DNA of 59,718 bases from IMG/VR virus record IMGVR_UViG_3300011115_000141, positions 1-59,718 of that record; one strand, written 5' to 3'. Made by a program: the position numbers and the translations under genes. The DNA comes from a virus. Lineage: Duplodnaviria; Caudoviricetes. Shown in pieces: positions 12,997 to 35,300 of this stretch (positions are counted from its first letter, which is position 1; each line of letters opens with the position of its first letter). Under the pieces are notes generated by a model. The model was not told the origin of the DNA, ran no database searches, and saw only the letters and a program-made list of their open reading frames with translations.

Positions 12997-13085
12997 TGAC
13001 GCCCTACGAAAAGTTCGAGCGGGTAATACTTTTGTTAGCGGTCATTGTCGTTACCCTTGACCTCTTTTACTGGAGGCCCTTTTGA
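12993..13085 (+). CDS. 30-aa single-pass membrane microprotein (not in ORF track)
   Basis: GGAGGAGG RBS, ATGA coupling; MMTPYEKFERVILLLAVIVVTLDLFYWRPF. Confidence 0.55.
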   Translation: MMTPYEKFERVILLLAVIVVTLDLFYWRPF

Positions 13086-13108
13086 CTACTATCAACAACC
13101 TCTTTTCT

Positions 13109-13151
13109 AGGGGAATTCCCCTTGACTTCTGTCTAAGCCTAGACAAATAAT
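13109..13151 (+). promoter_or_regulatory. sigma70-like promoter with operator B in the spacer and an upstream 14-bp palindrome
   Basis: AGGGGAATTCCCCT (13109-13122), TTGACT (13122-13127), TGTCTAAGCCTAGACA (13130-13145), AATAAT (13146-13151, 18-bp spacer). Confidence 0.6.
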
Positions 13152-13172
13152 GGCAAAACTAAGGAGAAAGCT

Positions 13173-13385
13173 ATGCAAAAAAACATACCCTACGACACGG
13201 GCAAGGTCAAGATTGGCCTATTTTATTCACCCCCACCACCCCCAACCACGCCCGAGGACAACTGGGTGCAATCCATTCTGCTTGGCGACAGGCAGGGTAT
13301 GTCCGAGCTTACGCTCGTGACCATTCAATCCATCGGGCTTATAGCCTTCATCATCATTGGCATTCTTTTAACAGGAGGAAACTAA
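13173..13385 (+). CDS. Small protein with C-terminal TM helix
   Basis: AAGGAGAAAG RBS; hydrophobic C-terminus. Confidence 0.65.
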   Translation: MQKNIPYDTGKVKIGLFYSPPPPPTTPEDNWVQSILLGDRQGMSELTLVTIQSIGLIAFIIIGILLTGGN

Positions 13386-14018
13386 ATGCCTGACATCCAA
13401 ACCGCGTTAAGTAACGCACTCAAAACCACAATCAACGACTGGGAGAAAGACGATATGCAAATCACACAAACCAACACACAATCAAAGTCCACTAAATTCT
13501 TTGACATCACCAACAATGTAACCCGCGCAACCTTCGACTACGTGAAGAACCATCCTAATGAAACCTCGCCCGAGATATGTGCAAGCATGGCTAGGCTAGG
13601 GTACAAGGAAAGCTCAGTGGGGTCACTCATTGCGCAGTTTGCCAAGCAGGGCTTGGCTGAGAGAGATGACAGGGGCAGGTACATCACCATCGTGGACGAG
13701 TATCGACCACTCAAAGCCAAAAAGAAAATACTTACGGTTGTGCCCAAGCCAGTCGAGGCCAAGCGCAAGTATGTCAAGAAAAGCGATACTGCGGGAGGCA
13801 TCGGTGCACTGTTGAAGGAGAAGCTGGAGAACACCCCTATGCCTAGCCAAGACGCGCTTGATGCTGCGGCCTACGCCATGGGTACTGCGCGTGTGGACGT
13901 AAACAAACGCATGGTCTCCCTCGTACGCGTGAAGTCACCCGAAGATGTTTTGAAGGACATGACTGTGTATCAAGCGCATGAGTTGTACCGCCACCTTAAA
14001 GAAATGTTTGGAGGGTGA
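13386..14018 (+). CDS. Putative winged-HTH DNA-binding protein
   Basis: AGGAGG RBS; FDYVKNHPNETSPEI...SSVGSLIAQFAKQGL..RDDRGRY resembles a wHTH. Confidence 0.55.
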   Translation: MPDIQTALSNALKTTINDWEKDDMQITQTNTQSKSTKFFDITNNVTRATFDYVKNHPNETSPEICASMARLGYKESSVGSLIAQFAKQGLAERDDRGRYITIVDEYRPLKAKKKILTVVPKPVEAKRKYVKKSDTAGGIGALLKEKLENTPMPSQDALDAAAYAMGTARVDVNKRMVSLVRVKSPEDVLKDMTVYQAHELYRHLKEMFGG

Positions 14019-14019
14019 A

Positions 14020-14814
14020 ATGTACGAAGACGAACCAGTCAACGAGTATCGCATCAAAGTCACAGTTAGAAACAATCTGATCTTGAACGCGATTGAGAAC
14101 GCTGGGTATAAAAGTGTGTCAGAGTTTTGTCGTGCGGTTAATTTGCCAAAGACTGCGCTGACAGAACTAATAGCCATGCGTAAGCCTCCTCTCAATCAAA
14201 ACGGGGAGTTCAGTGAGCATGCCAAGGCGCTCATGGAGGAGTTGTGTGCACTGCCAACCGATCTGTGGACATCCGAGCAACTAACGCTGAAACTTAAACG
14301 CAATACCGCACAACGTGATGTAAGCTCTGAAGGTATGCGTGCTGCTCTCGGGATGCACGCGGAGGAGATGCTTGAGTTGATGAGGCCCGATGACCCTGAC
14401 GAAGCTGTGCTCAAGCATGAGACGGTGAGTCTCGTGGAGAAACAACTGGATTCCATTACTCCGCGTGAAGCCTTGGTACTGCGTATGCACTTTGGCATCG
14501 GTTGCGAGGAACACACGCTTGATGAAATTGGAGAAAAGCTTGATGTAACGCGAGAACGTATACGGCAGATCGAGGCCAAGGCTTTGCGTAAATTAAAACA
14601 CCCGTCAAGGTCTGATGAACTGCGTCAGCTATTGCCTGCGTACGAGCGATCTCCCGATCAAAAACAAAAAGCAAAACCGCCTGCGTGTGAGAATGTGTAT
14701 CACCAGTTCTACATGAACCCAAACGGAGTAAGTGTCTGCGCTCACTGCGGTATTGGGGAAGAACGTTTTAACAATATCAAAGAGTATTCACATCTTATGA
14801 AGGAGCAACAATGA
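14020..14814 (+). CDS. HTH plus sigma70 region-4-like protein
   Basis: ITPREALVLRMHFGI...TLDEIGEKLDVTRERIRQIEAKALRKLKHPSRS closely matches RpoD region 4; N-terminal SVSEFCRAVNLPKTALTELI is XRE-like; no region 2 is recognisable. Confidence 0.85.
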   Translation: MYEDEPVNEYRIKVTVRNNLILNAIENAGYKSVSEFCRAVNLPKTALTELIAMRKPPLNQNGEFSEHAKALMEELCALPTDLWTSEQLTLKLKRNTAQRDVSSEGMRAALGMHAEEMLELMRPDDPDEAVLKHETVSLVEKQLDSITPREALVLRMHFGIGCEEHTLDEIGEKLDVTRERIRQIEAKALRKLKHPSRSDELRQLLPAYERSPDQKQKAKPPACENVYHQFYMNPNGVSVCAHCGIGEERFNNIKEYSHLMKEQQ

Positions 14815-14987
14815 ACGACGACGATGACATCCAAGAGTACGTTAGCAATAATTTTGCGCAAACATTTAAACAAGTGGTTCGCAATGAGACTTTAGAAGAA
14901 GTTGCCCGTGAGTTTGAAAAGATGAAAGTTTTTGAAGCAGACACCATGGCAAGCATTGCCGTGAATATAAGGAATATGAAACGATGA
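14811..14987 (+). CDS. Small hypothetical protein (58 aa, not in ORF track)
   Basis: AAGGAG RBS; MNDDDDIQEYV...RNETLEEVAREFEKMK. Confidence 0.6.
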   Translation: MNDDDDIQEYVSNNFAQTFKQVVRNETLEEVAREFEKMKVFEADTMASIAVNIRNMKR

Positions 14988-15175
14988 ACGGTTTTGTTAG
15001 ACGGCAACTGGCCATTGGTGGCATACAGCCCATGCACAAGTACAAAGAGTGTGCTCAGTGCAACGAGATGAAACCACCTGAAGGCGGTATTGAGATGAGC
15101 CAAACTAAGTGGCACTGCGCAAGATGCTGGGCCAACCGAGTCATAAGTAGGAATTTAAAAAATGCCAAGACCTAA
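14984..15175 (+). CDS. Small Zn-finger protein
   Basis: CAQC...CARC. Confidence 0.6.
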   Translation: MNGFVRRQLAIGGIQPMHKYKECAQCNEMKPPEGGIEMSQTKWHCARCWANRVISRNLKNAKT

Positions 15176-15383
15176 ACCACCTGAAAAACTACTGGGAAGA
15201 CAAGTCCGAATGTCTGACAGACACTGGATGATATTGCAACAACTTGGCGGGGCTGAATGGTTGAGGACTATCCTTGACAAGAAGGCGCCCATGCCCAAGA
15301 AGTATTACGACAACGAACTGGCGCGTATGCACAACCCTGCTGACGCTGTATTTTTAAAACGAAGGAGAGAAGAAAATGATTGA
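15162..15383 (+). CDS. Putative ribbon-helix-helix DNA-binding protein
   Basis: MPRPK...RQVRMSD..W..LQQLGGAEWLR pattern. Confidence 0.55.
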   Translation: MPRPKPPEKLLGRQVRMSDRHWMILQQLGGAEWLRTILDKKAPMPKKYYDNELARMHNPADAVFLKRRREEND

Positions 15384-15945
15384 ACTGATTGAAGACGGTA
15401 CAGAGCCAACTTATGTGAGCCTCTACGAAGGTGCTACGCTTGAGCAAGCTGGGCATATATGGGGTAGCGTTATCAAGAGCGATGGTGGCCACTGCCCTGT
15501 GTGCAACAGATGGGGTAAGCTGTACCGGCGCGGTATTAGTGCGTCCATGGCACGGCAGTTAATATGGTTGTGCTTACAAGACCCGCGTGAAGATGGCTGG
15601 GTGGACGTACAACGCACCGCACCCGTGTGGTTGCTACGCTCCCCTCAACTTGGTACTTTGCGGCACTGGGGCATGGTACTGGATGCGCCTGTGAAGGGTG
15701 CGAAGAGCCGTACGGCAGGACTGTGGAAGCCGACAGCCATAGGCTTGGAGTTTGCATACAACAAACTTTCTGTGCCCAAGTACAAGTACATCTACAACGA
15801 CACCGTGTTTGATACCGAAGGCGCTGACGTCACCATTCTCGATTGCATTGGTGAACACTTTGATTACAACGAACTTATGAATGCAAACTATTATGGCGAA
15901 TACACCGGAAACGAAAGTGAAGACGGCAGTGAGGAAAATGCTTAA
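15376..15945 (+). CDS. Hypothetical protein with CxxC
   Basis: AAGGAG RBS; CPVC motif. Confidence 0.65.
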   Translation: MIELIEDGTEPTYVSLYEGATLEQAGHIWGSVIKSDGGHCPVCNRWGKLYRRGISASMARQLIWLCLQDPREDGWVDVQRTAPVWLLRSPQLGTLRHWGMVLDAPVKGAKSRTAGLWKPTAIGLEFAYNKLSVPKYKYIYNDTVFDTEGADVTILDCIGEHFDYNELMNANYYGEYTGNESEDGSEENA

Positions 15946-16204
15946 TGCCTTTGACATCTACCACTTCATGCCCCCTGCTAACGGCTTTGGCCGTGCAGGG
16001 ATACCTGACATCATTGGCTGTATGGATGGACACTTCATCGCCATCGAGTGCAAGGCAGGCAAAGGCACAACCACAGCCCTTCAAGACAGAGAACTCAACG
16101 CCATCCTTAACCATGGCGGAACAGTTTTCATTGCTAGAGAAGACAACCTTGAAGACTTACAACAACTACTGATGGGACTACGAGATGAGCTACATAGAAC
16201 CTGA
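15893..16204 (+). CDS. VRR-NUC family nuclease (Holliday-junction resolvase-like)
   Basis: TPE...GIPDII...FIAIECKA...TALQ...GG, the PD-(D/E)XK VRR-NUC signature. Confidence 0.85.
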   Translation: MANTPETKVKTAVRKMLNAFDIYHFMPPANGFGRAGIPDIIGCMDGHFIAIECKAGKGTTTALQDRELNAILNHGGTVFIAREDNLEDLQQLLMGLRDELHRT

Positions 16205-16481
16205 TTTCGCAATGACAGACGAGGAGCTACACCGCAGAGTCGTGGCTATGTCAGATGATGAGCAAGAACACTTCAGGCTACTGATCCACAAGTTGGTGAT
16301 GTGCTATGGAGAAGGCAAGGCGCAAGGCGTTGTCGTCATTGGCCGCGCTGAAGATCAACTGGCAGGAGTCGTTACGCTAAACTGTAACGAGATGGAGGCG
16401 TCGCAACTCATGTTGGCGGCAAACGATTTTTTCGGCTTTCTAAACGTCCTCGACGCACCACCAAAAGAAAACTTTAACTGA
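16185..16481 (+). CDS. Hypothetical protein
   Basis: 98-aa ORF in the operon. Confidence 0.65.
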   Translation: MSYIEPDFAMTDEELHRRVVAMSDDEQEHFRLLIHKLVMCYGEGKAQGVVVIGRAEDQLAGVVTLNCNEMEASQLMLAANDFFGFLNVLDAPPKENFN

Positions 16482-16491
16482 AGGAGATAAC

Positions 16492-16746
16492 ATGAAAGAA
16501 GAATGGCTAATGCCCGGAGCCGTAGTTCCGGTAGACATAGAAACAATACAAGCGCTTGTTGAGGAAATCAAAAGACTGATTGATGTTGTTGGTGGCATGG
16601 CGTTGAATCAACAGGAAGAACGCGCAGAGTCGCAGGGCAAGATCGAAACCCTGCACGCCATGTACGAACTGGCAAGCAAGCAACGAGATACTTTGATGGA
16701 CGAACAGCGAGCACAGGTTGCGGCTATGCGCGGGAGGATTCAATGA
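16492..16746 (+). CDS. Hypothetical coiled-coil protein
   Basis: AAGGAG RBS. Confidence 0.65.
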   Translation: MKEEWLMPGAVVPVDIETIQALVEEIKRLIDVVGGMALNQQEERAESQGKIETLHAMYELASKQRDTLMDEQRAQVAAMRGRIQ

Positions 16747-16997
16747 ACAGAGATGACATTATCCGCATGGTTAACAAAGCTGGTGGTGGGCAATTGTCAG
16801 ACCGACAGTTTCAATTGCATGGTTTAGACACAATTACAAATTTTGCCGCCCTTGTCGCTTCTTCCGAGCGTGAGGCGTGTGCAAAGGTGTGTGAGTTGAT
16901 GTGGCACGAATGGTTGGACTCGCCCGAAGAGAATGAACCAAATAAACCTGATGCAGAAGATTGTTACAGGGCTATCCGAGCAAGGAGCAATCCATGA
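16743..16997 (+). CDS. Cassette protein, MNRxDIIR/FAALV/EREAC/AIRAR family, copy 1
   Basis: Shares four motif blocks with 16994-17323. Confidence 0.75.
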   Translation: MNRDDIIRMVNKAGGGQLSDRQFQLHGLDTITNFAALVASSEREACAKVCELMWHEWLDSPEENEPNKPDAEDCYRAIRARSNP

Positions 16998-17323
16998 ACA
17001 GGGAAGACATTATCCGAATAGCGCAAGAGGCGGGGTTGCATATTGCAACCGATGTGAACTGGATGCCTATCATTGGCCTTGAGTACGCAGAGAAGTTTGC
17101 CGCCCTTGTGATTGCCAACCACCCACCGCAGTCATACATGACATGGCAAGAGGGGTACGAGGCAGGCAAGCAGGACGAGCGTGAGGCGTGTGAAGCCCTG
17201 CATGACCACGAAGATGTGCAAGCCCCTGTTGGCAACAGTTCATGGGGTGAGGCGTATCAAGAGGGTTGGGGTCAAGGCACAGCCGCATATCGTGATGCCA
17301 TCCGAGCAAGGGGACAAGCATGA
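16994..17323 (+). CDS. Cassette protein, MNRxDIIR/FAALV/EREAC/AIRAR family, copy 2
   Basis: AAGGAG RBS, ATG 16994; same blocks with different inserts. Confidence 0.75.
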   Translation: MNREDIIRIAQEAGLHIATDVNWMPIIGLEYAEKFAALVIANHPPQSYMTWQEGYEAGKQDEREACEALHDHEDVQAPVGNSSWGEAYQEGWGQGTAAYRDAIRARGQA

Positions 17324-17916
17324 CTAAAGAAGCATTGAAGTTGGCATTGGAGGCGTTGGAAACCCCTTGGAATGCCCCTTATGTTGATGGTTGCGACTTG
17401 GCATTGGGCAAGAAAGTGAAAGCCATCACCGCCATCAAAGAAGCCTTGGCCAACGAAGCCCTAGAAAAAATGGCAGAGAACGCCAGAGAGTTAGGGCTGG
17501 ACTATGAGCCAGAGCAGAAGCCTGTGGCGTGGGTTGACCCAGCAACATTGCATCACCTAAAAATTGGCTTAGAAGGTGTGCATTTGGTGTACGAAACAGA
17601 GATGGTCAACTCTTTGCCTTTGTACGACAAGCCACAATTTGCAAATTCTAAAAATTATTTAGAACGACTGATACGCATTATGGGTACGTTTGACTTGGCA
17701 ACTGGTCATGCAAATAATTTTGATGAACTGCTTGATTCGCTAGAGTCAGAGTTGCGTGATGTGCTTGGGCATTACCGACAACAGCGCACATGGGTTGGGC
17801 TGACGGATGAGGAAGTGAATAGCCTACGGTACAAACGCGATTGGACTGGCCCTTGGACAGACATGACATTTGCCCGAGCCATTGAAGCCGCAATATTGGA
17901 GAAAAACAATGTCTGA
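17320..17916 (+). CDS. Cassette protein, RTWVGLT/AIEA..KEKN family, copy 1
   Basis: PVAW...PLY...QRTWVGLTDEE...FARAIEAAILEKNN. Confidence 0.75.
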   Translation: MTKEALKLALEALETPWNAPYVDGCDLALGKKVKAITAIKEALANEALEKMAENARELGLDYEPEQKPVAWVDPATLHHLKIGLEGVHLVYETEMVNSLPLYDKPQFANSKNYLERLIRIMGTFDLATGHANNFDELLDSLESELRDVLGHYRQQRTWVGLTDEEVNSLRYKRDWTGPWTDMTFARAIEAAILEKNNV

Positions 17917-18112
17917 ACCTAAGCTAAAAGTAGTATTTGAAGAGGGGTGCTTTGATGGGTTTGATGGAACACCTGACGAGCTGGCTGAGATGATCGCTGA
18001 GCTACACCGTATGGCGGCTGACGGAACCATCATGGACAACGCTACACCCTTGGACGACGACCAGATCGAGGAGCTCAACGAGGCTAAGAGCAGACGGGAG
18101 CAGAGGCAATGA
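17909..18112 (+). CDS. Small acidic hypothetical protein
   Basis: ATG 17909 after GGAG in the joint (MSEPKLKVVFEEG...). Confidence 0.65.
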   Translation: MSEPKLKVVFEEGCFDGFDGTPDELAEMIAELHRMAADGTIMDNATPLDDDQIEELNEAKSRREQRQ

Positions 18113-18432
18113 CAGCCGCATACTTTGAAGACCATCCAACAGGCCCTGACAAGGTTATCTTGCGTAAGCCGAAGCATGACTTTGGGGAGCCTTGGTCGCC
18201 CGTGTCGATTGGAGTGGACGTTACCAAAGAGGGCGCTCATGTTGTTGGTATCTACGCTTTGGATAAAGATACCTCGCATATTTTCTACGCCAAACACCAT
18301 CCTGCACCACAGCGCACATGGGTTGGGCTGACGGAAGACGAGGTGTTTGCAGTTAGCAACACTATGCCGTACGGGGATCGTTTTGACTTTGCCGAAGCCA
18401 TTGAAGCCAAACTCAAGGAGAAGAACACATGA
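18109..18432 (+). CDS. Cassette protein, RTWVGLT family, copy 2
   Basis: PQRTWVGLTEDE...FAEAIEAKLKEKNT. Confidence 0.75.
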   Translation: MTAAYFEDHPTGPDKVILRKPKHDFGEPWSPVSIGVDVTKEGAHVVGIYALDKDTSHIFYAKHHPAPQRTWVGLTEDEVFAVSNTMPYGDRFDFAEAIEAKLKEKNT

Positions 18433-18650
18433 ACGTAGGACGCTATTTAAGGGGCGAAGACCGCCATGTTGGTACAGCAAGAACAACACAGTTTCAGCAA
18501 CCACAGCGCACATGGGTTGGGCTGACGGATGAGGAGATTAGCGACTTGTGGTGCAAGGTCAGCAATACCGACTTTGTGACGGCAGACACCCATGTGTTTG
18601 CCAGAGCCATCGAAGCCGCACACGGCATTAAGGAGAAGAACAATGGATAA
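18429..18650 (+). CDS. Cassette protein, RTWVGLT family, copy 3
   Basis: PQRTWVGLTDEE...FARAIEAAHGIKEKNNG. Confidence 0.75.
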   Translation: MNVGRYLRGEDRHVGTARTTQFQQPQRTWVGLTDEEISDLWCKVSNTDFVTADTHVFARAIEAAHGIKEKNNG

Positions 18651-18873
18651 ACCAATAGCATGGTACGACCCAACTAACGGCATGGTCAGCACAGACAAAG
18701 ACAGTCCTTTGTTTACACCGCTTGGTCAGGTATGGCCTTTGTATCCACCGCGCACATGGGTTGGGCTGACGGATGAGGATTTGGGGTTTTTGTTTCCGCA
18801 TGGAAAATCTGTATGGCTTCAAGAAACAGTAAAAATCATTGAAGCCAAACTCAAGGAGAAGAACAATGCTTGA
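18643..18873 (+). CDS. Cassette protein, RTWVGLT family, copy 4
   Basis: ATG 18643; PIAW...PLYPPRTWVGLTDED...IEAKLKEKNNA. Confidence 0.75.
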   Translation: MDKPIAWYDPTNGMVSTDKDSPLFTPLGQVWPLYPPRTWVGLTDEDLGFLFPHGKSVWLQETVKIIEAKLKEKNNA

Positions 18874-19012
18874 TTGGTTAACAAAACATTGGTGCAGTTG
18901 GTTTCATGGCGGCGGTCAGATTAAGCGTGACTGTTACGACCGCATCAACTGGCAGTGTGGTAAATGTGGTCGATGGTGTGATCCGGTGGAACTCAAGGAG
19001 AAGAACACATGA
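18866..19012 (+). CDS. 48-aa Cys/His-rich microprotein (not in ORF track)
   Basis: MLDWLTKHWCSWFHGGGQIKRDCYDRINWQCGKCGRWCDPVELKEKNT; starts and ends in the joint repeat. Confidence 0.65.
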   Translation: MLDWLTKHWCSWFHGGGQIKRDCYDRINWQCGKCGRWCDPVELKEKNT

Positions 19013-19197
19013 AATACTCACAATCCAAACCGCTTGTGGAAGAGTTGATGAACCTTGCAATACTGTTTCATGGAAGCCCAACCATGTTGCGTACCAAGAT
19101 ATATGACGCAATTGACAAGTATATTCCCGACCTTGACCCCGCTTGCATGGAGCGTGGTTGTACCTGTATTGATGACTACAAGGAGAAGAACAGTTGA
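19009..19197 (+). CDS. Small hypothetical protein ending in the KEKN joint
   Basis: RBS supplied by the joint; ends YKEKNS. Confidence 0.65.
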   Translation: MKYSQSKPLVEELMNLAILFHGSPTMLRTKIYDAIDKYIPDLDPACMERGCTCIDDYKEKNS

Positions 19198-21164
19198 CCA
19201 AACCATACGACACGATCTTAACGATCGACTTCGAAACCTACTGGGACACCAAGGAAGGTTACACACTTAGCAAGATGACAACTGAGGAGTACATACGCCA
19301 TGACTTATTTCACGCGTTTGGATGCTGCGTTCATGAGTACGGATCTGACAGCCCAATTACTTGGGTTAGAGGAGATGGACTACGTGAATACTTTTCTGGA
19401 ATCGACTGGGGACGAACCGCAGTGCTTGCGCACAACGCACAGTTCGATGTATCAATTATGGAATGGGTGTATGGCGTACACCCCGCCTTCATCTTCGACA
19501 CCCTATCAATGGCGCGAGCTCTCAGAGGCGTTGAGGTTGGCAACAGTCTCGCCAAACTTGCAGACGCTTTTGGTCTTCCCGCCAAAGGGACAGCCGTACA
19601 CAGCACCAATGGTGTGGCCGAGTTGGACGAGGTCTTGGAATCTGAGCTTGCAGACTATTGCAAACACGACGTATATCTATGCGAACGAATCTTTGATCGC
19701 TTGGTCAAAGGATACCCCAGCAAAGAGCTAAGACTCATCGACATGACGCTGAAAATGTACACACGCCCAGTGTTGCAGCTTGACGCCCTCATGCTACATA
19801 ACGCAATCGAAAAGGAGAAAGAAGATCGTGACGCACTACTACAGAAACTCGGCGTGGAAGAGACTGCGCTGGCATCGAACCCGAAGTTTGCTGCACTACT
19901 TGAGAAACTCAATGTTGTTCCGCCAACCAAGGTTAGTAAGACGACTGGGAAGCAAGCGCTTGCCCTCGCTAAAAATGATGCCCTATTTCAAACGCTTCTC
20001 AACGGTGAACGTGAAGACGTTGCCCTACTTTGTGAGGCGCGTCTTCGGGTTAAGTCAACCACCGAGAGAACCAGAGCACAGCGGTTTCTGGACATCAGCC
20101 AACGCGGTGCACTCCCAGTACCTCTCTCGTACTACGGTGCGCAAACTGGTCGTTGGACAGCCGCCAAAGGCTCGGCCATTAACATGCAGAACCTCAAGCG
20201 AGGCTCGTTCCTACGCAAAGCAATTATGGCTCCCGAAGGCTACCAACTCGTCGTCGGTGATCTCTCGCAGATTGAGCCACGAGTACTTGCATGGCTTTCA
20301 GATTACCAAGACATGCTTACGATATTCAGGGGTGGGGGTGACCCTTACGCCGCGTTCGGATCGCAGATGTTTAACATTCCCGGACTCAGTAAGGAGACTC
20401 ACCCAGATCTTCGGCAGTCAGCGAAGAGCGCACTCCTTGGCTGCGGATACGGTCTTGGTTGGGCGGCTTTTGCGTCTCAACTTCTCGTGGGATTCCTCGG
20501 GGCACCGCCCGTTCGGTATGAGAAAGATTTTGCAAAGAAGCTAGGCGTGGATGGCAAGTACATCGACAAGTTCCTTGAGTGGGATGACAACTACGTCAAG
20601 ATGATGGAGATCCCACATACTTGCACGGATCAGGAGCTACTCATTCACTGCGTAGCGTCCAAGAAGATCATCGACAAGTACAGGGCTACAGCGCACCCCG
20701 TTGTGAGCTTCTGGGACATGTGCTCTGGCCTCATACAAACATCGCTTGCAGACGGCAAAGAGTTCGTGTATAAATGTATTACCTTCAAAAAGGGTGAGAT
20801 AGTTCTGCCAAACGGCATGAGTTTGCTCTACCCAGACCTGCGCCAAGAGAAGGACGAGAAAGGTAGGAGCCAGTGGATATACGGGCCAGACGCTACCAAA
20901 CTTTACGCAGGCAAGATCACGAACAATGTGGTGCAGGGCACTGCGCGTATTGTGATGACGGACGGGATGCTACGAACTGCAAAGAGATACTTTGTGGCTG
21001 GAACGGTACATGACGAGCAGATCGTTGTTGTGCCGGAAGCTGAAGTGGAGGAAGCTAAGACTTGGGTCTTGGCTCAGATGACTATGGAGCCGAGCTACAT
21101 GCCCGGTATTCCACTAGACGCTGACGGTGGTGCGCATCGTCGTTATGGATTAGCAAAAAACTAA
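19194..21164 (+). CDS. polA: Family A DNA polymerase with 3'-5' exonuclease (Leu762 type)
   Basis: ExoI IDFET, ExoII AHNAQFD, ExoIII YCKHD; motif A GDLSQIEPR, motif B RQSAKSALLGCGYG, motif C TVHDE; TTG start. Confidence 0.95.
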   Translation: MTKPYDTILTIDFETYWDTKEGYTLSKMTTEEYIRHDLFHAFGCCVHEYGSDSPITWVRGDGLREYFSGIDWGRTAVLAHNAQFDVSIMEWVYGVHPAFIFDTLSMARALRGVEVGNSLAKLADAFGLPAKGTAVHSTNGVAELDEVLESELADYCKHDVYLCERIFDRLVKGYPSKELRLIDMTLKMYTRPVLQLDALMLHNAIEKEKEDRDALLQKLGVEETALASNPKFAALLEKLNVVPPTKVSKTTGKQALALAKNDALFQTLLNGEREDVALLCEARLRVKSTTERTRAQRFLDISQRGALPVPLSYYGAQTGRWTAAKGSAINMQNLKRGSFLRKAIMAPEGYQLVVGDLSQIEPRVLAWLSDYQDMLTIFRGGGDPYAAFGSQMFNIPGLSKETHPDLRQSAKSALLGCGYGLGWAAFASQLLVGFLGAPPVRYEKDFAKKLGVDGKYIDKFLEWDDNYVKMMEIPHTCTDQELLIHCVASKKIIDKYRATAHPVVSFWDMCSGLIQTSLADGKEFVYKCITFKKGEIVLPNGMSLLYPDLRQEKDEKGRSQWIYGPDATKLYAGKITNNVVQGTARIVMTDGMLRTAKRYFVAGTVHDEQIVVVPEAEVEEAKTWVLAQMTMEPSYMPGIPLDADGGAHRRYGLAKN

Positions 21165-21175
21165 AAGGAGAAAGT

Positions 21176-21484
21176 ATGAAGTTACCAACGCGTATGCGTG
21201 TGGGCAGGAAATGGTACAGCGTGGAGGTGGTAGAAGCCATGCTTCATCGCCGAGATATGGGGCGCACGTTCTACCCAGAGCAGTGCATCCGGCTTGGCAA
21301 GACAAGCAACATCACGGGGCGTAGGTTCAGCAAGGATGAGTTGGCTGACACGTTCTGGCATGAGGTTGTCCACGCCATACTGGAGGACATGGGGCAGTAT
21401 GAACTCAATAAAAACGAGGCGTTTGTCACACAGTTTGCCAACCGATTAACTGTAGCAATAAAGACTGCGAAGTTTGATGACTAA
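21176..21484 (+). CDS. Small HExxH metallopeptidase-like protein
   Basis: TFWHEVVHAIL...NE motif. Confidence 0.6.
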   Translation: MKLPTRMRVGRKWYSVEVVEAMLHRRDMGRTFYPEQCIRLGKTSNITGRRFSKDELADTFWHEVVHAILEDMGQYELNKNEAFVTQFANRLTVAIKTAKFDD

Positions 21485-22145
21485 ACCAATTACATGGAGC
21501 CACTCATCCCTCAAGGATTACGAGGGCTGCGCCCGTAGGTATCACGAAGTAAAGGTCTTGAAGAACTACAAGTTCCAAGAGACTGAAGCGACGCGCTACG
21601 GCACGGTACTGCACGAAGCCGCAGAGTTGTACATCAAAGAGGGTAAGCCTATCCCCAAAGAGTTTGAGTACATCAAGGACACACTCGATGCCCTGAACGT
21701 CAAGCCCGGAAGAAAGCTGTGCGAGCACAAGATGGGGCTGACTGTTGACTTGCAACCCTGTGAGTTTCTTGGCAAGGATGTGTGGCTTCGCGGTATTGCT
21801 GACTTGCTTATCGTTGACGATGAGAACTTAACTTGTTGGGTTGTGGACTACAAGACCGGCAACAACAAGTACCCAGATCGGGAGCAACTTAAACTGATGG
21901 CGCTCATGGTGTTCGCCCACTTCCCACACATCCGAAAGGTCAACGCAGCTTTGCTGTTCGTGGTCAAGGATGACATGGTTAGGGCGTCATACACGATTGA
22001 CCAAGCCGAAGCTGAGTGGTGGCAGTATCGCCAACGCGTGGCTAGGATTGAGCAAGCGCATGCAACAGGCGTATGGAACCCAAGACCCTCACCACTGTGT
22101 CCTTGGTGTCCCGTTACAACCTGCGAAAACCACCCAAAACATTAA
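21477..22145 (+). CDS. PD-(D/E)XK exonuclease (RecB/Cas4-like)
   Basis: SHSSL...C, GTVLH, GIADL, VVDYKTG, QLKL and C-terminal CPWCPVTTC. Confidence 0.85.
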   Translation: MTKPITWSHSSLKDYEGCARRYHEVKVLKNYKFQETEATRYGTVLHEAAELYIKEGKPIPKEFEYIKDTLDALNVKPGRKLCEHKMGLTVDLQPCEFLGKDVWLRGIADLLIVDDENLTCWVVDYKTGNNKYPDREQLKLMALMVFAHFPHIRKVNAALLFVVKDDMVRASYTIDQAEAEWWQYRQRVARIEQAHATGVWNPRPSPLCPWCPVTTCENHPKH

Positions 22146-22155
22146 GGAGAAAACT

Positions 22156-22443
22156 ATGAACGTATATGACATCGACATCGTGACAGACTCAGACGAAGGC
22201 CGCACAGTCAATGTGTGGACACTCAACGCCAACAACATGGCCGAAGCATTGCTTGATGCGTTTGAGAAGAATAAGAACTCACTCAAGAGCGTTACAGAAG
22301 GCGCTGTCATGGTGACAATCATTAAAAAGTTTTCAAAGCAAGCAGAAATTTCCCACTTTGAAGCGCAAAATAAAGTACGTCTAATGGTTGCTGAAACTGA
22401 GCAGTCCATCATGGATTTAATTAAACCCCCTGTTAAACATTAG
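22156..22443 (+). CDS. Hypothetical protein
   Basis: AAGGAG RBS before ATG 22156. Confidence 0.6.
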   Translation: MNVYDIDIVTDSDEGRTVNVWTLNANNMAEALLDAFEKNKNSLKSVTEGAVMVTIIKKFSKQAEISHFEAQNKVRLMVAETEQSIMDLIKPPVKH

Positions 22444-22451
22444 GAGCAATC

Positions 22452-22685
22452 ATGGCTACACGCAACTACCGCAGTGAGTACGACAACTACCAAGGTACAC
22501 CCGAGCAGATCAAGAAACGCGCAGGCCGAGTCAAGGCTAGGCGCATGATGGAGAAGACGGGTGCAGCCACCAAGGGTGATGGCAAAGATGTGGATCACAT
22601 CAAGCCTATGCGCTCGGGCGGTACGTCAGCGAAGGGCAACCTTCGTATGCGAAGTAAGTCAGCGAACAGATCAGACAATAAATAA
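22452..22685 (+). CDS. Small HNH-family nuclease
   Basis: DVDHIKP..SGG....NL.......N motif. Confidence 0.75.
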   Translation: MATRNYRSEYDNYQGTPEQIKKRAGRVKARRMMEKTGAATKGDGKDVDHIKPMRSGGTSAKGNLRMRSKSANRSDNK

Positions 22686-29215: not shown

Positions 29216-29369
29216 GAGGGGGCAGGGGTTCTTCGTCCCCTGCATTGATACTGCGGCTGTTAGAACCGAGGGCTTGAACAAGGCCCTCGGCTTTCGTTTG
29301 TTTGACGCCCGAGCCAAGATCGGGATCAGGGACGGCTTTACTGGCGTGTGGTTTTATCGACTGCTTTGA
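29175..29369 (+). CDS. Small hypothetical protein, last gene of the plus-strand arm
   Basis: YPW..LE.GQGFFVPC...GVWFYR; overlaps the convergent virion gene end. Confidence 0.55.
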   Translation: MKKLSIQYPWQRLERGQGFFVPCIDTAAVRTEGLNKALGFRLFDARAKIGIRDGFTGVWFYRLL

Positions 29370-32300
29370 GGAAGGCTCTGGCGTATTCCGTCTGCGCTTT
29401 GTCGATACGCGCCAGCATCTCGTCTTTTTGCTCAGTGGTCAACGTGGGCGATGCCACAATCTGACGGCGGTACTTAGCAAACTCTCCAAGCTTTTGCTGT
29501 ACCGAGCCTGACACCGATGCTGCTCCCAACTTGTCTGCATATTCTTGTGCAAACGCTCTTGCTTCGGCTGTCTTACCCTGCTCCACGAGGCGGTTGAAAG
29601 AACCTTTGGTCTGTTGGATACTCTCCATCACGTCATACGCTTCATCAAGGGTGCCCCTGCCTTCAACGGGCTGGAACAAATTACCAATGATTGGCATTTT
29701 GCTTGCCTTAAGCGTAGGCTTGGCTACGTCTTCTTTCATCTCCATGTTCAGTATCGGGTTGGCCAACTGCACAACAGCAATACCCATACCGCCGGCGTAG
29801 CCACGGATGAGGTAGTCAATACCGATAGGCGACAAACCTTCTTTGCCCGTGATCTGCTTGATCGTTTCGCTACCCGTGATGCTACCGAGCAACTTGGCAA
29901 ACTCAGTAGTAGATTCACGGGCACGCTCACCAGCCAGCATTTTCTGCTCACGTTGTGACTCGATAGCCCCGCCAAAGAAAGAAGTGCCTAAGTACACCTC
30001 GGTAATAGGTTTGATGGCTTGCGGTAAAGCAAACGGATTGGTCTGCGCTACAAGCTTGAGCCAGCCGCCCACTGCCTTGGATGCTTTCTCATCGTTGGAT
30101 GCCATGTCAAGAATAGCTTCGGGCAATGCTTTGAACAAGTAACCCAATTCAAACGGGATAGGTACACGCACGGGCTCATCAAAGCCGGGGATGTATACGA
30201 ACCAACTGCCGTAGCGTTCTTCGGGCTTGGCGCGTTTGTATGCTTCGTCGTCGGACATCATGGCAGCATAAGCCAATGTGCCTGCGGCAATCATCAAGCC
30301 ACGAGCCATCATCTTTTGTTTGATTTTAAGCTGTTCACTGAACGGCATCTGGCCTGTGTATGCACGGTACAGCACATCCAGACCCTGAATCTGAGCGTTA
30401 AAGAACGGGATAACAATCGACAGCGCTTGCATGCTAGGCGACAGACCACGGCGGCCAAAGTTCATGGACTCTAGCGTACGCAGAAGCGCGGCTTGCTCGG
30501 ACATTCCTTTGGCTAGGGAGTCTTTGTATACGACAGCACGGGTAGACGCATCGCCTTGCATAGCAAACGCATCCAGTTTGGCTACAAGTTTAGTCCAGCC
30601 AGACTTACCTGAAGTAATTTCTTTAAGGAATTTAGACGCATCACGCTGGTCACCCGTGAACACGTTACTACTGATAGCGCCTGTGCGCATCAGCTTTGCT
30701 TCAACTTCGCTGCGTCCGGCCACCATACTGGCCAACTCTCTAAACGAACTGAGTACTGGCGTAGCGTCTGTGCCCGTTGTCAACCAAGCATTCAGAGGAT
30801 CGCGTATGGTCTGACGCACAGCGTAAGCGGGGTTGCGTGTCACAAACTTGCGCAGAATGTCCGCAGGGATACCCATCATTTTGATAGCGGCGGGCATCGT
30901 GGTCTTGATACCTTCCATGCCCTTAATAATGAGATCCGCAGGGATGCCGTACTGGTCTTTGTCGATGTACACAAAGTGATCTTTGCCGTTGACTTTGAAT
31001 CGCACAGTGCTGTCGCTTGCGGGGCCAGAGCCTTCTCCAAGCGCTGTGGCCATACCCATTTTCTTGAGCAAGAACGCAGACTCTTTGACCATCTGGTTAC
31101 GTAGAGCCAAGTCAGTCAGCATGAACGTGTTCTGAACCGAGCTTGTAAAGATTGGCAAGATGTTCTTATTGCCACCAACCAACTCTTTGAGTTGTGGCTC
31201 AGTCTTGACATTACCAATACGAACGGGCGTCTCTTTGTCCACCATCAACTCAATGTTGCCGCTGTTGCTGTTGACGCGGTAGTACGGAATGTAAGGTACG
31301 GACTTCAATTCCTTGGCCAGCTTCTCAGTGATAGCGCCTGTTTGTACGAGGAAGTCAACTTGCCCATCATTGAACTCTTTGTAGATGCGTGCGGCTTCTA
31401 GTACGGCGTCTTTCTTGGTGCTGTCGCTGTTAAGCAGACGCATGACATCGTTGTATTCCTTCTCAGCCAGAGCAGGGTTCTCGTAGTTCAGCTTCTGCCA
31501 GCCTTTGACCTTGGCTCTTTCTCCCGCTACGTATGCGGTCAGAATAGCTTCGGCTTCTGTGTCGTTGGCAAACTTGCCCTTGTGCAAAGCTTCTGCCACT
31601 TCAACCATGTTAGCGCCCTTGACGCTGTCGTACACGTAACCCCCACCTTCGCCTTTGCGTAAGATAAGCTTTCCGTTGGTCAGCGCTTGACCCGCATACT
31701 GGCTGCGTTGTTGACCGAATCGCAGATAGAATTCTGCGTTTTGTGCTTCCAAAGATGTGATGGCGTTGCTGGCTACGCCACGTTTAAATGCCTCAGACAA
31801 GGCTGCGTCTTTGTCCACAAACTGAACACGGCCTGTGAGACCCAAGACGTTGCCAAGAAACTTGTCTTTTATTGAAGTTTCTTTAGCAATGAAAGACGCG
31901 CCATACTGCGTGGGTTCTTTCTTGGTACGGAAGGCCATCTCACCATCAGCCGTTCTGTACGCACCGATTGTCTTGTTCTCAAACGCTTTGCGGGACTGCT
32001 TCAAAGCATAGAAGACGTCAGATGTTGATAGTACAGAGGAAGAAGTAAAGCCCAGATCACGCAAGCCTGCGCGAATCATGCCGACAAACTCCTTGAGCCA
32101 TCGACCAGCCTTTTGTCTGAAGCTTTCAGTGACGCGTGCTTCTTCGGTGTGCGCAATGATCTCACGCAAGACTTGAAGTCTTTGCACTGCTTCGTTCTTG
32201 CCTTGGGCTGCATTGAACTGCGCAGTCCTGATAACCTCATCTACAAGTGTTTGACCGCCAATCTCTTCAGCCAGTTTGCGTAGGTCTGTCTTGTTGGCAT

Positions 32301-35300
32301 ACGCTTGCAAACGCTCAATACCAATTATGGTATCTATGCCGTAGTGACCAACCAACTCGTGGAACACTGTGGCTTCCAAGTCTTTCAAGTCAGCATGCTG
32401 GTCGCCCACCACCAAGACAGTGCCGTCACTGAACACAGCGCCTTGCACCATGGCTTCGGTAGGGTCGATACCTTCATCAGACATACGTTTGAGAAGGGCA
32501 ACAGGAATCTTGCCGGGGTTAGCGGCGTATACCATCTTTACGTTTGAAGGCAGTTTACTCTGCACTTTTTCCATAAAGTCAGCGGCTTGCTTGGCATCAA
32601 CGGTGCCGCCTTCTGTTTCACGGGTGCGATAGGCTGTGCCAGTATCGGAGTCGTAAGCTGCTTTGACTAGTTCTTCAACCTGCGCTTTAGTCAAGCGTGA
32701 ACCTGCTTCACGCAGAGATTTTTTCTCCGTAGCTGCACGGCTTTCAGCAGAACCTGTACGGTCTTCCGTAGGTGCACGGCGAACCTTTCGAGTCTCTTGT
32801 TCCGTGCGTTTGGAAGGCGTCTCTTGTTTGCTCTGAGACAGCGCTTCTCTAACAATCTCTGTCTGCTCTGCAAGCGTAGCCTTGTACTCAGGCGTTTTCT
32901 TTCCAAGTTCCAACGCTTTGGCGTTTAACTCGTCGTTCATTTTTAATTGAAACGCAACTACGTCAGGATCATTTTTACCGTATTTTTCTTGCAACGCAAC
33001 CAAACGCTTGGTCATGTTGTCGCCAAGCTTTTCATACTCAGGCTCTTGCATGCCAAGAGACGACGCCAGCCTAGTCATTTGGATAGACTCTTCCGCTTCT
33101 TTGCGCACATCGCCAGACTCAATTCGTCTGGTTGTCTTGACGGCACGGCTAACTTTGGCACCAATGACTTTGCCTTTTTTACCCTGCTCTATTTCTTCGG
33201 GCGTGGGCGCTGCGCGGCGCTTCAACGTGTCAAGCTGTTCTTCGCCTGCTTTTTTCTTTTCCGCCGCTACAACGCTGGCTTTAGCTGCAGGCGTAGCTTC
33301 GTACATGCTTTTGTACATGCCTTCAATTTGCTCACGCACAGGCGTAATCTTGGCCAACACGCGGTTGTATCTGTTCAACGCCGCTTTGATCTTACGCTGA
33401 AGGCCAAAGCTTTTATTTGTTTCTGCCTGCTCAAGAAGTGTGTTGTGTACGTCTGCGGCATCGTACAACTCTTGCAACCAAGACTGCTTGGCGTTGCCAA
33501 TCGGGAGCACCACCTTGTTATGCAGGCGGTTGATGTTGTTCATCGTGATATCGTATTGCTCATCAGACACAACACGCTTGGTTTCTGTACCGGCAAGGTT
33601 TAGCCGCGTATCTAGTGCCCGGGTCATGCGCTGCTTTTCAGCATCTTTGACATACTGAGAGACACGGCCAGCCGACATGTTTGTAGCTTCTGCCATACGG
33701 CGGTCAGCCGCTTCCCGTTCTTCGGGAGTCATCTCTGTGCGCTGGATGTTCTCAGAACTGAAAATGTCCAACTGCCTTGGGTCTTTCTGCATGGCCAACT
33801 GAATTGGTTTGTCATCGGACACACGTTTTAAGCCGTAACCTTCGGGACGCTCGTACTGGGTCTCAACCGCTTTAGGCTTGAATTCCAACGCTTCAGCAGG
33901 CGTCTTGGCAATACCGGGCACGGTGGTGGGCTGCTCTGGGCCTTCGGGCTTCTCCGTTGAAGGGATAGGCGCTTCTTCTGCCGTGAATAACTCGCGGGTC
34001 TGGCCACGTTGTGCTTGGTTAATGGCTTTCTCTTCAAGGACTGAGCGCTTCTGACCGAAGCTTTCCATCAGATCGGCACGCTCTTTGTTCAACTCGTCCA
34101 GTTTGGTTGTGAGTTTGGGTAGCTCATCAAACGAGCCTAGCTGCGCTGCGTCCGCAAGCTTCTTCTTTGCGTTCTTAATCTTTGTGTCAATGCTGGACAG
34201 CGCAGCTTTAGACTGAGCTTCCAGTTCCTGTGCGGTTTGCGTTGTACCGCCTAAACCTTCAATAGTCTGTGCCGTGGTCTCCATTTGTGTCTGGAGAGGC
34301 GTGTACTGCGCGTAGAGTGCGTTAACTTTGGCTGTGTCACCCGCAGTGGCCGCTTCTTGCATCTGCGTTTGCAGACTAGACAGTTGGGTCTTAAGCCTGT
34401 CGTACTCCTCCATTGTCCGGTTTAAGTCAGGCTTTGGTGGCTCGGGAGGAGTTGGGGGGACAGCGCCCGTGTCCATCGTACCCATGACCGCACCGGGGCG
34501 AACAGTTTCTACAACTGGCGCAGGGGGAGGAGGTGGTGGCGGTGCTGGCAAAGCCAACATTGGGGCTGCCGCAGGTGGGGGTGGCGGAGGTGGGGGTGGC
34601 TCATCTCCTTGGGGGGCTTGAACTTCTTGCTCTGCGGTTTGTCTAGCGGCAACTGCGTCTCGGGCTGCGCTTTTTTCCGAAAATCTACCAACGGCACCCA
34701 AGGGGCCAAGCAAACCAGCTTGGTACGCGGTTTCTCCATATTCTTTAAGCGCATCAGGAGAAGTTAAGGATAACCCTGCCTGTGCACGTTCCAACATCTG
34801 TTGGGTAATCTCTGTTGGCACTTCGGCCAACACACCTACGCCAGTGCCTTTTGCAAGGGTGGCCAGCAGTTTTTCATCAGCTAACTTGGAAGCTTGCGCA
34901 GCAGACTTTCCAAAGAAAGCCATCTCGGGGATGCCCGTCAGCTTGCTGACCAGTTTGCCGCCAAACGGAATAAACGTTCCGGCAACATCCAGTAGACCCT
35001 GCCCAGTAGATGCAAGCTCGGCTGCGGCAGTATCAATTTTTACAGGCTCGCCCCGTGCAATTTGTTCCTGTGCTTGGCGTTGTATGTCGCCGCCTAAACT
35101 TTGTATTTTTGATGGAAGAAACGCCCCCAACACACCGCCTGCGATGGCTCCGGGTACCCCTAGTGGGCTGCCTGCCATGACGCCAAGTCGAGCCCCGCCA
35201 AACGAAGCCGCAAGATTAGGTGCTTGTTCAGCAAGAGCTAAAGGAATTTGGCGGCCAACTTCTTTGGCGGCAGAAAGAACACCGTCTTTGGTGTAGGCTT

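Follow-up and report, generated by a model that had tools for sequence, protein, structure and literature searches.

How do small phage genes come to share short stretches of identical DNA and nothing else? This question is raised by the variable (hyperplastic) region at positions 16482..19193 of an uncultured freshwater phage, the Caudoviricetes virus record IMGVR_UViG_3300011115_000141, the whole of which (59,718 bases, estimated to be 95% complete) was analysed and is called the window here. The region spans 2712 nucleotides (nt) between its flanks, holds ten small translationally coupled genes, g0 to g9, all on the + strand, and is followed directly by the gene of a family A DNA polymerase. 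A first-pass annotation, made from the letters of the window, had described part of it (17320..19197) as an array of microgene cassettes built on constant DNA joints. In our analysis, the array has likely been assembled by short-homology recombination at coding joints, which shuffles half-genes and whole genes across the phage population.

Short coding joints recur in otherwise unrelated genes

Four genes of the window (g3, g5, g6 and g7) end in a module of about 45 amino acids (aa), RxWVGLTDEE...AIEAKLKEKN, that lies between two joints: an N joint (...CGC ACA TGG GTN GGG CTG ACG GAT GAG..., encoding RTWVGLTDE) and a C joint (GCC ATT GAA GCC AAA CTC AAG GAG AAG AAC, encoding AIEAKLKEKN), the latter including the AAGGAG ribosome site, the spacer and the stop/start overlap of the next gene. 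Within the N joint, the 24-mer GCGCACATGGGTTGGGCTGACGGA is present in four exact + strand copies, at 17784, 18312, 18506 and 18750, all in frame and encoding RTWVGLT, as the first-pass annotation had stated; allowing up to three mismatches gave no extra copies in the window, and 0 of 100 shuffles matched. The end joint, AAGGAGAAGAACA (13 nt), was said to occur six times, but has five exact copies (18415, 18630, 18853, 18995 and 19180; 0.08 expected), the putative sixth (17896-17908) reading TTGGAGAAAAACA with three mismatches and encoding LEKNN. A longer 28-mer with the ATTGAAGCCAAACTC prefix occurs twice. A single nucleotide separates the last end joint (19180-19192) from the TTG start of the polymerase gene, and this joint supplies the gene's AAGGAG site, in agreement with the annotation, and all ten junctions from 16743 to 19194 are stop/start overlaps of 4 or 8 nt. 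A P(V/I)AW...PLY block is shared, again as annotated, by the genes at 17320 (g3) and 18643 (g7). The segments between the joints are indeed unrelated: no other repeat family in the window connects them, and protein alignment finds them alike at the joints only.

The proposed extent of the array, 17320..19197, holds for that part but not for its start, since the array begins at 16482 and includes a second motif family, MNRxDII...FAALVA...EREACA...AIRARG. This second family has repeated DNA blocks of its own, and an AAGG(A/G)G ribosome site is encoded by its end joint; the family recurs in many relatives, and EREAC[AE] gave 111 matches in 102 sources. EREACA, AIRARG, QEPVAW and LYTxPP are further joints, which behave like the N and C joints.

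The genes are mosaics with breakpoints inside the joints

A polymerase search yielded at least 599 viral contigs, of which 80, with 77-93% identical polymerases, were fetched; pooling these with the window and with 231 loci that match one joint exactly gave 312 sources. A local profile produced 398 matches in 269 of them, and parsing, which needed both joints, returned 307 matches, 289 of them unique. Quantification of the parts revealed that the 289 genes are mosaics of 182 front clusters and 177 middle clusters, joined in 267 combinations with five four-gamete squares. In the protein database, the front of g6 (MNVGRYLRGEDRHVGTARTTQFQQPQ) precedes no fewer than 15 different middles and the middle of g6 follows no fewer than 15 different fronts, while P0048 consists of the g6 front joined to the g5 middle.

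We then compared gene pairs that share one part only, and in 529 of 539 comparisons the homology ended inside the joints. In 170 of 175 pairs with the same middle but different fronts, homology ended 0-19 nt to the left of the Trp codon; with the same front and another middle, it ended 3-27 nt right of that codon (131 of 132). At the C joint, genes with the same middle and another downstream gene were homologous until 1-26 nt past the first base of KEKN (147 of 149), and those with the same downstream gene and another middle until 0-27 nt left of that base (81 of 83). A similar picture emerged for the two module-free families in relatives: the body of the g8 family is near-invariant with a tail after KEKN that varies with context, the g9 family has a near-invariant body with at least eight different tails after KEKN, and in L024 the g9 homologue is placed before a different gene. 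The claim that variable segments and whole microgenes are recombined at constant joints across the phage population is thus borne out by the combinations, the breakpoints and the swapped tails.

Occupancy of the locus varies between relatives

The DNA of the 80 relatives matches the window up to 16482 and resumes at about 19180; between 16500 and 19180 it matches at the joints almost exclusively. In the 70 loci that hold both the conserved 98-aa gene on the left and the polymerase gene, the insert from flank to flank measures 0 nt in 27, 8 nt in one and up to 2262 nt elsewhere, the 2712 nt of the window being the largest. Because the size and content of the insert differ between relatives with matching flanks, 16482-19193 is a variable region with changing content, as opposed to a conserved operon. 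A profile of the four window copies found one to five module copies each in 37 of the 80 polymerase-anchored loci, all on the same strand and upstream of the polymerase gene. Shared cassette order and content in close relatives, the observation that the first-pass annotation had named as fatal to its proposal, is thus not what was seen: L005-L009, whose polymerases match that of the window most closely over their full length (91-92%), hold no copy of either joint, and the contigs with a 92% identical polymerase carry no insert. L005-L007 contain a 20-nt piece of locus DNA that aligns with either end of the variable region (16463-16482 and 19179-19198); a short junction sequence around the ribosome site is therefore common to empty and filled sites.

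Silent sites are conserved in the joints

Codon usage was counted in copies not selected on the DNA of the joint in question, with one gene per combination, and compared with a background of 69 polymerase genes. The joints are strongly skewed at silent sites. In the N joint, ACA is used in 98% of copies (27% in the background), GGG in 75% (17%), CTG in 85% (12%), ACG in 69% (23%) and GAT in 97% (37%); in the C joint, GCC is used in 89% (23%), GAA in 93% (45%), AAA in 91% (40%) and CTC in 61% (25%), with AAG, GAG and AAG of KEK at 88-99%. Beside the almost-fixed Gly, Leu, Thr and Asp codons of the N joint, its Val codon (within window positions 17790-17810) is nearly free (GTT 67, GTA 63, GTG 19 and GTC 9), a pattern noted across 168 genes. 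The codons of EREACA, AIRARG, QEPVAW and LYTxPP are likewise skewed; the EREAC skew is seen in the 109 matches outside the window, and that of AIRARG, which encodes AAGG(G/A)G, includes the rare Arg codons CGA and AGG. Free synonymous variation, the other outcome that the annotation had named as telling against it, is therefore not what the joints display. Between the joints of unrelated genes, 27-41% of the codons that could vary silently are different, well below the 47-82% expected from codon usage. Since skewed silent sites in the joints stand beside middles that have diverged beyond recognition, either the nucleotides themselves are conserved or exchange keeps spreading them.

A large, uncatalogued family of modular proteins

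The consensus of the module is xPxRxWVGLTDEE, followed by 15-35 variable residues and then by the C-terminal AIEAKLKEKN. A profile search of 1.84 billion protein cluster representatives gave 25,796 matching representatives at an expectation value (E) of 1e-3 or below and 4,063 at 1e-10 or below, mostly with a C-terminal module. Neither Pfam, PHROGs nor NCBIfam had a match for g0-g9, and Pfam had none for 10 longer relatives; the nearest clusters in the protein Atlas are unnamed viral ones, every score being below 0.9, and a literature search for the family motifs, with supplementary files outside its reach, returned no relevant paper. For each of two exact joint sequences, a 27-mer and a 23-mer, at least 119 viral contigs gave a match, and the joint-bearing stretches range from 38 to 58% G+C. 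A polymerase homologue was present in the fetched stretch of 43 of the 231 joint-matched loci, and 27 of those 43 homologues are just 23-43% identical.

In the longer relatives, units of the form ...QEPVAW...PLYTxPPQRxWVGLTDEE...AIEAKLKEKN follow each other two or three times in one frame. Among these, P0151-P0213 are proteins of 100-400 aa with two or three tandem units, in which neighbouring mini-genes have apparently been fused by read-through at the KEKN joint. Two loci (L011:4460-4972 and L018:5239-5751) encode proteins of 170 aa that read in frame from the EREACA/IRARG family, through the AIRARG joint, into QEPVAW...PLYxTPPQRTWVGLT...AIEAKLKEKN; one modular system therefore comprises both the second family and the module. 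In P0174 (4318 aa), profile positions 8-24 are matched 28 times over short lengths; this is probably a repeat protein unrelated to the family.

A degenerate IEAKLKEKN pattern retrieved 40 stretches from species genomes, 34 of them with a profile match; as judged by eye, both motifs are present in about 27 of the 40, and the remainder, which have the tail only, are probably chance matches. Almost all of these stretches come as small contigs from metagenome bins that bear many different taxon labels, Burkholderiales-type in 13 cases, and no host was inferred from them. An AlphaFold2 model of g6, built on a 75-row alignment, is of low confidence (mean predicted local distance difference test score 64; predicted template modelling score 0.33) and has three short helices (residues 34-45, 54-63 and 67-71).

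Recombination at the joints and other explanations

The early or middle small genes would, on the reading that we favour, be interchangeable pieces that meet at short conserved joints. During co-infection, homologous recombination needing about 20-40 nt of near-identity would cross over inside a joint; as in-frame sequences that bring the coupling signal with them, the joints would make every product a readable gene. A crossover in the N joint would swap half-genes; one in the C joint would swap, add or delete whole genes. Homologous exchange on short identity is suggested because the breakpoints spread over about 40 nt, and host or unrecognised phage functions would perform it. The silent sites may in turn be kept by, or for, exchange, and the cassette proteins may be dispensable accessory proteins that act on the host. 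The 59.7-kb genome has no match to the tyrosine recombinase family PF00589, which a control search found in 14 of 14 genomes, nor to reverse transcriptase (PF00078); no serine recombinase or resolvase, RecT or ERF was found in this 95%-complete genome. "Recombinase-free", the term used in the first-pass annotation, goes further than these findings allow: no site-specific recombinase or known annealase was found, but exchange would still depend on host RecA or on a phage function that escaped recognition.

Several points weigh against recombination at the joints. The sequences are metagenome assemblies throughout, so that some combinations could be joining errors at shared joints; no cultured phage or clonal genome in the collections searched holds the module; no joint-specific recombination function was identified; and the evidence of exchange comes from sequence comparison, the four runs examined consisting of assembled contigs, which do not register rare variants of order or copy number, or circles, of this phage. 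On the side of the counts, the motif parser dropped 91 of the 398 profile matches, including g3 of the window, and the front and middle clusters were defined relative to the joint, which favours breakpoints near it. The codon tests treat the copies as independent although they are related, and the silent difference between joints is no lower than that between polymerase orthologues of one lineage (41%), the joints being far from invariant. There is also no general homogenisation within genomes (5.28 mean mismatches within a locus versus 4.98 between loci). Within-genome concerted evolution as a general rule was rejected on these figures, and the identity of joints within one genome turned out to be peculiar to the window and no rule: 12 other sources with at least three copies hold 2-7 different 24-mers each.

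That the array or its shuffling could be partly or wholly chimeric, with short-read assemblers chaining cassettes of different phages via shared joints, is an explanation we consider improbable. Each source is a metagenome assembly, Logan contigs of four runs break at the joints, and their summed depth there exceeds that of adjoining bins by a factor of 10 to more than 30, reaching in run X4 37,203 at 18413-18539 versus 450-1,134 over the polymerase gene; g3, g5 and g7 of the window each lie on one contig only, and the cassette order across its four identical N joints should be taken as provisional. Assemblers, however, normally halt at unresolved repeats rather than join them, and the exact shared stretches in the window are no longer than about 33 nt, which is shorter than a read. 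Moreover, seven locus pairs carry the same combination in different loci with divergence on both sides of the N joint, among them g7 of the window, whose front-middle linkage is also found in L197 (14 of 84 differences left of the joint, 1 of 84 right); the P0097 combination recurs on 12 contigs drawn from four sources, and many contigs carry members of the g8 and g9 families with alternative tails. Shared middles differ at 20-30% of silent codons, indicating that the exchanges are old and were not made within one sample. A contig of run X1, possibly from the same sample as the window, matches 18702-19053 without a single difference, a stretch that takes in the N joint and the C joint of g7, all of g8 and the beginning of g9; runs X1-X3 contain 60-77% of the words of this phage. 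Quite improbable, in our estimate, is an ordinary paralogous family, in which genes duplicated from one ancestor, protein function kept the motifs while the rest diverged, and the DNA identity in the window reflects recent duplication or chance. The motifs are conserved as protein, with conservative changes (RT/RE/RP/RG-W, V/I, D/E), their order is constant, and in the low-confidence g6 model they fall at the starts and ends of helices. Such descent does not account for near-identical fronts on unrelated middles and vice versa, as in the 267 combinations and five four-gamete squares, nor for sharp breakpoints inside the joints; middles diverged beyond recognition should go with saturated silent sites in the joints, which are instead strongly skewed, and the flanks of the four window copies share nothing, so recent whole-gene duplication is excluded.

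Nucleotide conservation could alternatively have been imposed by an enzyme, the joints being recognition sites for a site-specific recombinase or homing endonuclease or a Chi-like hotspot. Fixed silent positions site by site next to a near-free Val codon would fit a sequence-specific reader better than plain recent descent, and a Holliday-junction-resolvase-like nuclease (15881-16204) and a PD-(D/E)XK nuclease (21474-22145) flank the locus. The latter are, however, ordinary genes of a replication module, the recombinases, annealases and reverse transcriptase sought were missing, the breakpoints have no one fixed position within their spread, and the joints occur in phages of different backbones and G+C; we regard this explanation as very improbable. 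The chance is slimmer still, and close to negligible, that the nucleotides are conserved for translation only (Shine-Dalgarno site, spacer, coupling and messenger RNA features) with recombination as an unselected by-product. It is true that AAG GAG AAG AAC holds AAGGAG 7-8 nt before every downstream start, with its codons AAG, GAG and AAG at 88-99%, and that AIRARG encodes a ribosome site as well. Equally skewed, however, are the N joint, EREACA, QEPVAW and LYTxPP, which lie inside genes and far from starts, and the six codons before the ribosome site (GCC ATT GAA GCC AAA CTC), while other genes of the window use other spacers. A role of the joints as promoters or terminators was also rejected: positions 13000-22500 hold 6 promoter-like sites (8.2 expected) and 7 terminator-like hairpins (10.2 expected), which is no enrichment, and none of either lies at a joint.

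Recombination at the joints remains the explanation we prefer, and a stronger form of it, in which the joints are selected recombination signals, seems to us possible but unlikely. A grammar of at least six DNA words (EREACA, AIRARG, QEPVAW, LYTxPP, RxWVGLTDEE and AIEAKLKEKN with its ribosome site) would then be kept silently across phages of 38-58% G+C for in-frame exchange between any two phages, yielding a population-wide library of tens of thousands of host-directed mini-proteins without a site-specific recombinase. If so, the site-by-site pattern of silent conservation, in which Val is free to vary while the adjacent Gly, Leu, Thr and Asp codons are fixed, would mirror the requirements of the recombination machinery.

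The apparent junctions in the contigs of the four runs are other family members that align at two joints with different letters between, not deletions.

Comparison with known exchange systems

In T4-type phages, PeSLs (promoter-early stem-loops) are repeats in variable regions between core genes that act as exchange points for small genes, according to Arbiol et al. (2010; PMC2839356) and Comeau et al. (2014; PMC4122927). PeSLs resemble the joints in being short repeats with an additional role in expression, placed in a variable region between core genes where small genes of unknown function are inserted, deleted or replaced. The joints likewise mark insertions, deletions and replacements between relatives in a region between conserved core genes. 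PeSLs, by contrast, are intergenic and combine a sigma-70-type promoter with a stem-loop terminator, whereas the joints are coding, the C joint being a ribosome site with a stop/start overlap, and in the present array exchange also falls within genes and recombines half-proteins. For PeSLs, mini-circles excised by exchange between neighbouring repeats are reported; the runs covered here consist of assembled contigs.

Glycine-rich motifs separate hypervariable segments in the gp38 adhesins of T2/T6-type phages, as described by Trojet et al. (2011; PMC3157838). In both cases in-frame conserved motifs part variable segments that are readily interchanged, the gp38 motifs doubling, in that account, as a structural core. 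Judged by the same account, gp38 is one virion protein that sets host range, whereas here many small non-structural genes stand in an array within the replication module; the motifs (RxWVGLTDEE and AIEAKLKEKN) are unrelated to those of the glycine-rich adhesin, and one of them carries the translation signals of the next gene. Mosaicism of temperate phages has been attributed by De Paepe et al. (2014; PMC3945230) to 'relaxed' homologous recombination by the Rad52-like recombinases of temperate coliphages. Divergence-tolerant, homology-driven exchange that leaves traces of homology at the borders of pieces is common to that portrayal and to the array, which differs from it in having no recognised Rad52-like gene and in using its joints as a reused set of at least six motifs common to thousands of genes.

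The array is like an integron in consisting of small promoterless genes in one orientation and variable number beside a conserved anchor. It has neither an integrase nor attC-type hairpins (no dedicated attC model was run), its joints are coding and its exchange looks homologous; the term "integron-like" that had been applied to it is thus no more than an analogy, the likeness being one of function. In Neisseria pilE/pilS, Borrelia vls and the VENN-type motif before CdiA/Rhs toxin tips, short conserved blocks guide in-frame homologous exchange of variable mini-cassettes. Gene-conversion systems such as pilE/pilS and vls use silent donors and one expression site per genome, whereas here all copies are expressed genes and the donors are the phage population. 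Diversity-generating retroelements differ as well, given that PF00078 is missing here and that the variable parts are unrelated rather than point-mutated copies. The array is set apart from the published cases by coding joints that cut genes in half, one of which also carries the translation signals of the next gene.

If the proposed assembly is true, in-frame exchange at a few DNA-conserved joints would underlie one of the largest small-protein families of phages, with 25,796 cluster representatives and no entry in the catalogues. The array would then be a concrete, countable case, working below the level of the gene, of the 'linker sequence' idea of modular phage evolution, reportedly due to Susskind and Botstein. 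It may offer a natural system for measuring the identity that phage recombination needs, and a ready library, with a scaffold and variable inserts, in which to seek proteins that act on hosts or host defences. As a practical warning, the joints are hubs that break, and possibly mis-join, short-read assemblies of freshwater viromes.

Layout of the array and its neighbourhood

Reading from the left, the motif-free g0 (16492..16746; 84 aa) is followed by the two genes of the second motif family, g1 (16743..16997; MNRDDII...EREACA...AIRARS) and g2 (16994..17323; MNREDII...EREACE...AIRARGQA). Their EREAC joint includes the 17-mer CGAGCGTGAGGCGTGTG, with exact copies at 16865..16881 and 17176-17192, and the AIRARG end joint of g2, 36 nt with ribosome-binding site and stop/start overlap, occupies 17297..17332, its paralogous copy lying at 16971-17006. 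Next, g3 (17320..17916; 198 aa) has a helical front, QKPVAW and PLY, then RTWVGLTDEE...AIEAAILEKNNV, with the first N joint copy at 17784..17807 and a degenerate C joint at 17869..17908. The acidic g4 (17909..18112; 67 aa) has no joint motif; preceded by the degenerate joint of g3, it is the sole cassette from g3 to g9 without any end joint motif. Two genes with the module at their end follow: g5 (18109..18432; 107 aa), with its N joint at 18312..18335 and its C joint, FAEAIEAKLKEKN plus the ribosome-binding site for g6, at 18388..18427; and g6 (18429..18650; 73 aa), with its N joint at 18506..18529 and a variant C joint, AIEAAHGIKEKN plus the ribosome-binding site for g7, at 18597..18642. In g7 (18643..18873; 76 aa), KPIAW and PLY precede the module, the N joint is at 18750..18773 and the C joint (18826..18865) encodes IIEAKLKEKN and supplies the ribosome-binding site for g8. 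Two module-free genes end on C joints: the Cys-rich g8 (18866..19012; 48 aa), with ELKEKNT at 18990-19007, and g9 (19009..19197; 62 aa), whose YKEKNS end is encoded at the polymerase ribosome-binding site.

The left flank is the conserved 98-aa gene (16185..16481, +), where the DNA homology of relatives stops and which served as the tblastn anchor in the 70 loci. On the right, the polymerase gene (19194..21164, +) is identified by domain matches and includes a 3'-5' exonuclease. At the DNA level, no GenBank phage is close to the window, blastn having given just two joint-sized matches (46 and 54 nt), and tblastn with g6 against GenBank phages gave no match. The C joint is present in GenBank phage DSL-LC04, in a small-gene array downstream of the polymerase gene.

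No tRNA genes were found in the window. Pfam and PHROG matches identified genes for a large terminase subunit, a primase/helicase and an SNF2-type helicase. The sole match of a 2085-aa open reading frame (29338-35595, -) is a PHROG of unknown function, over the last 680 residues. A 278-aa protein (13978-14814) has a clear match to sigma-70 region 4 (E 1e-17) and may be a phage sigma factor.

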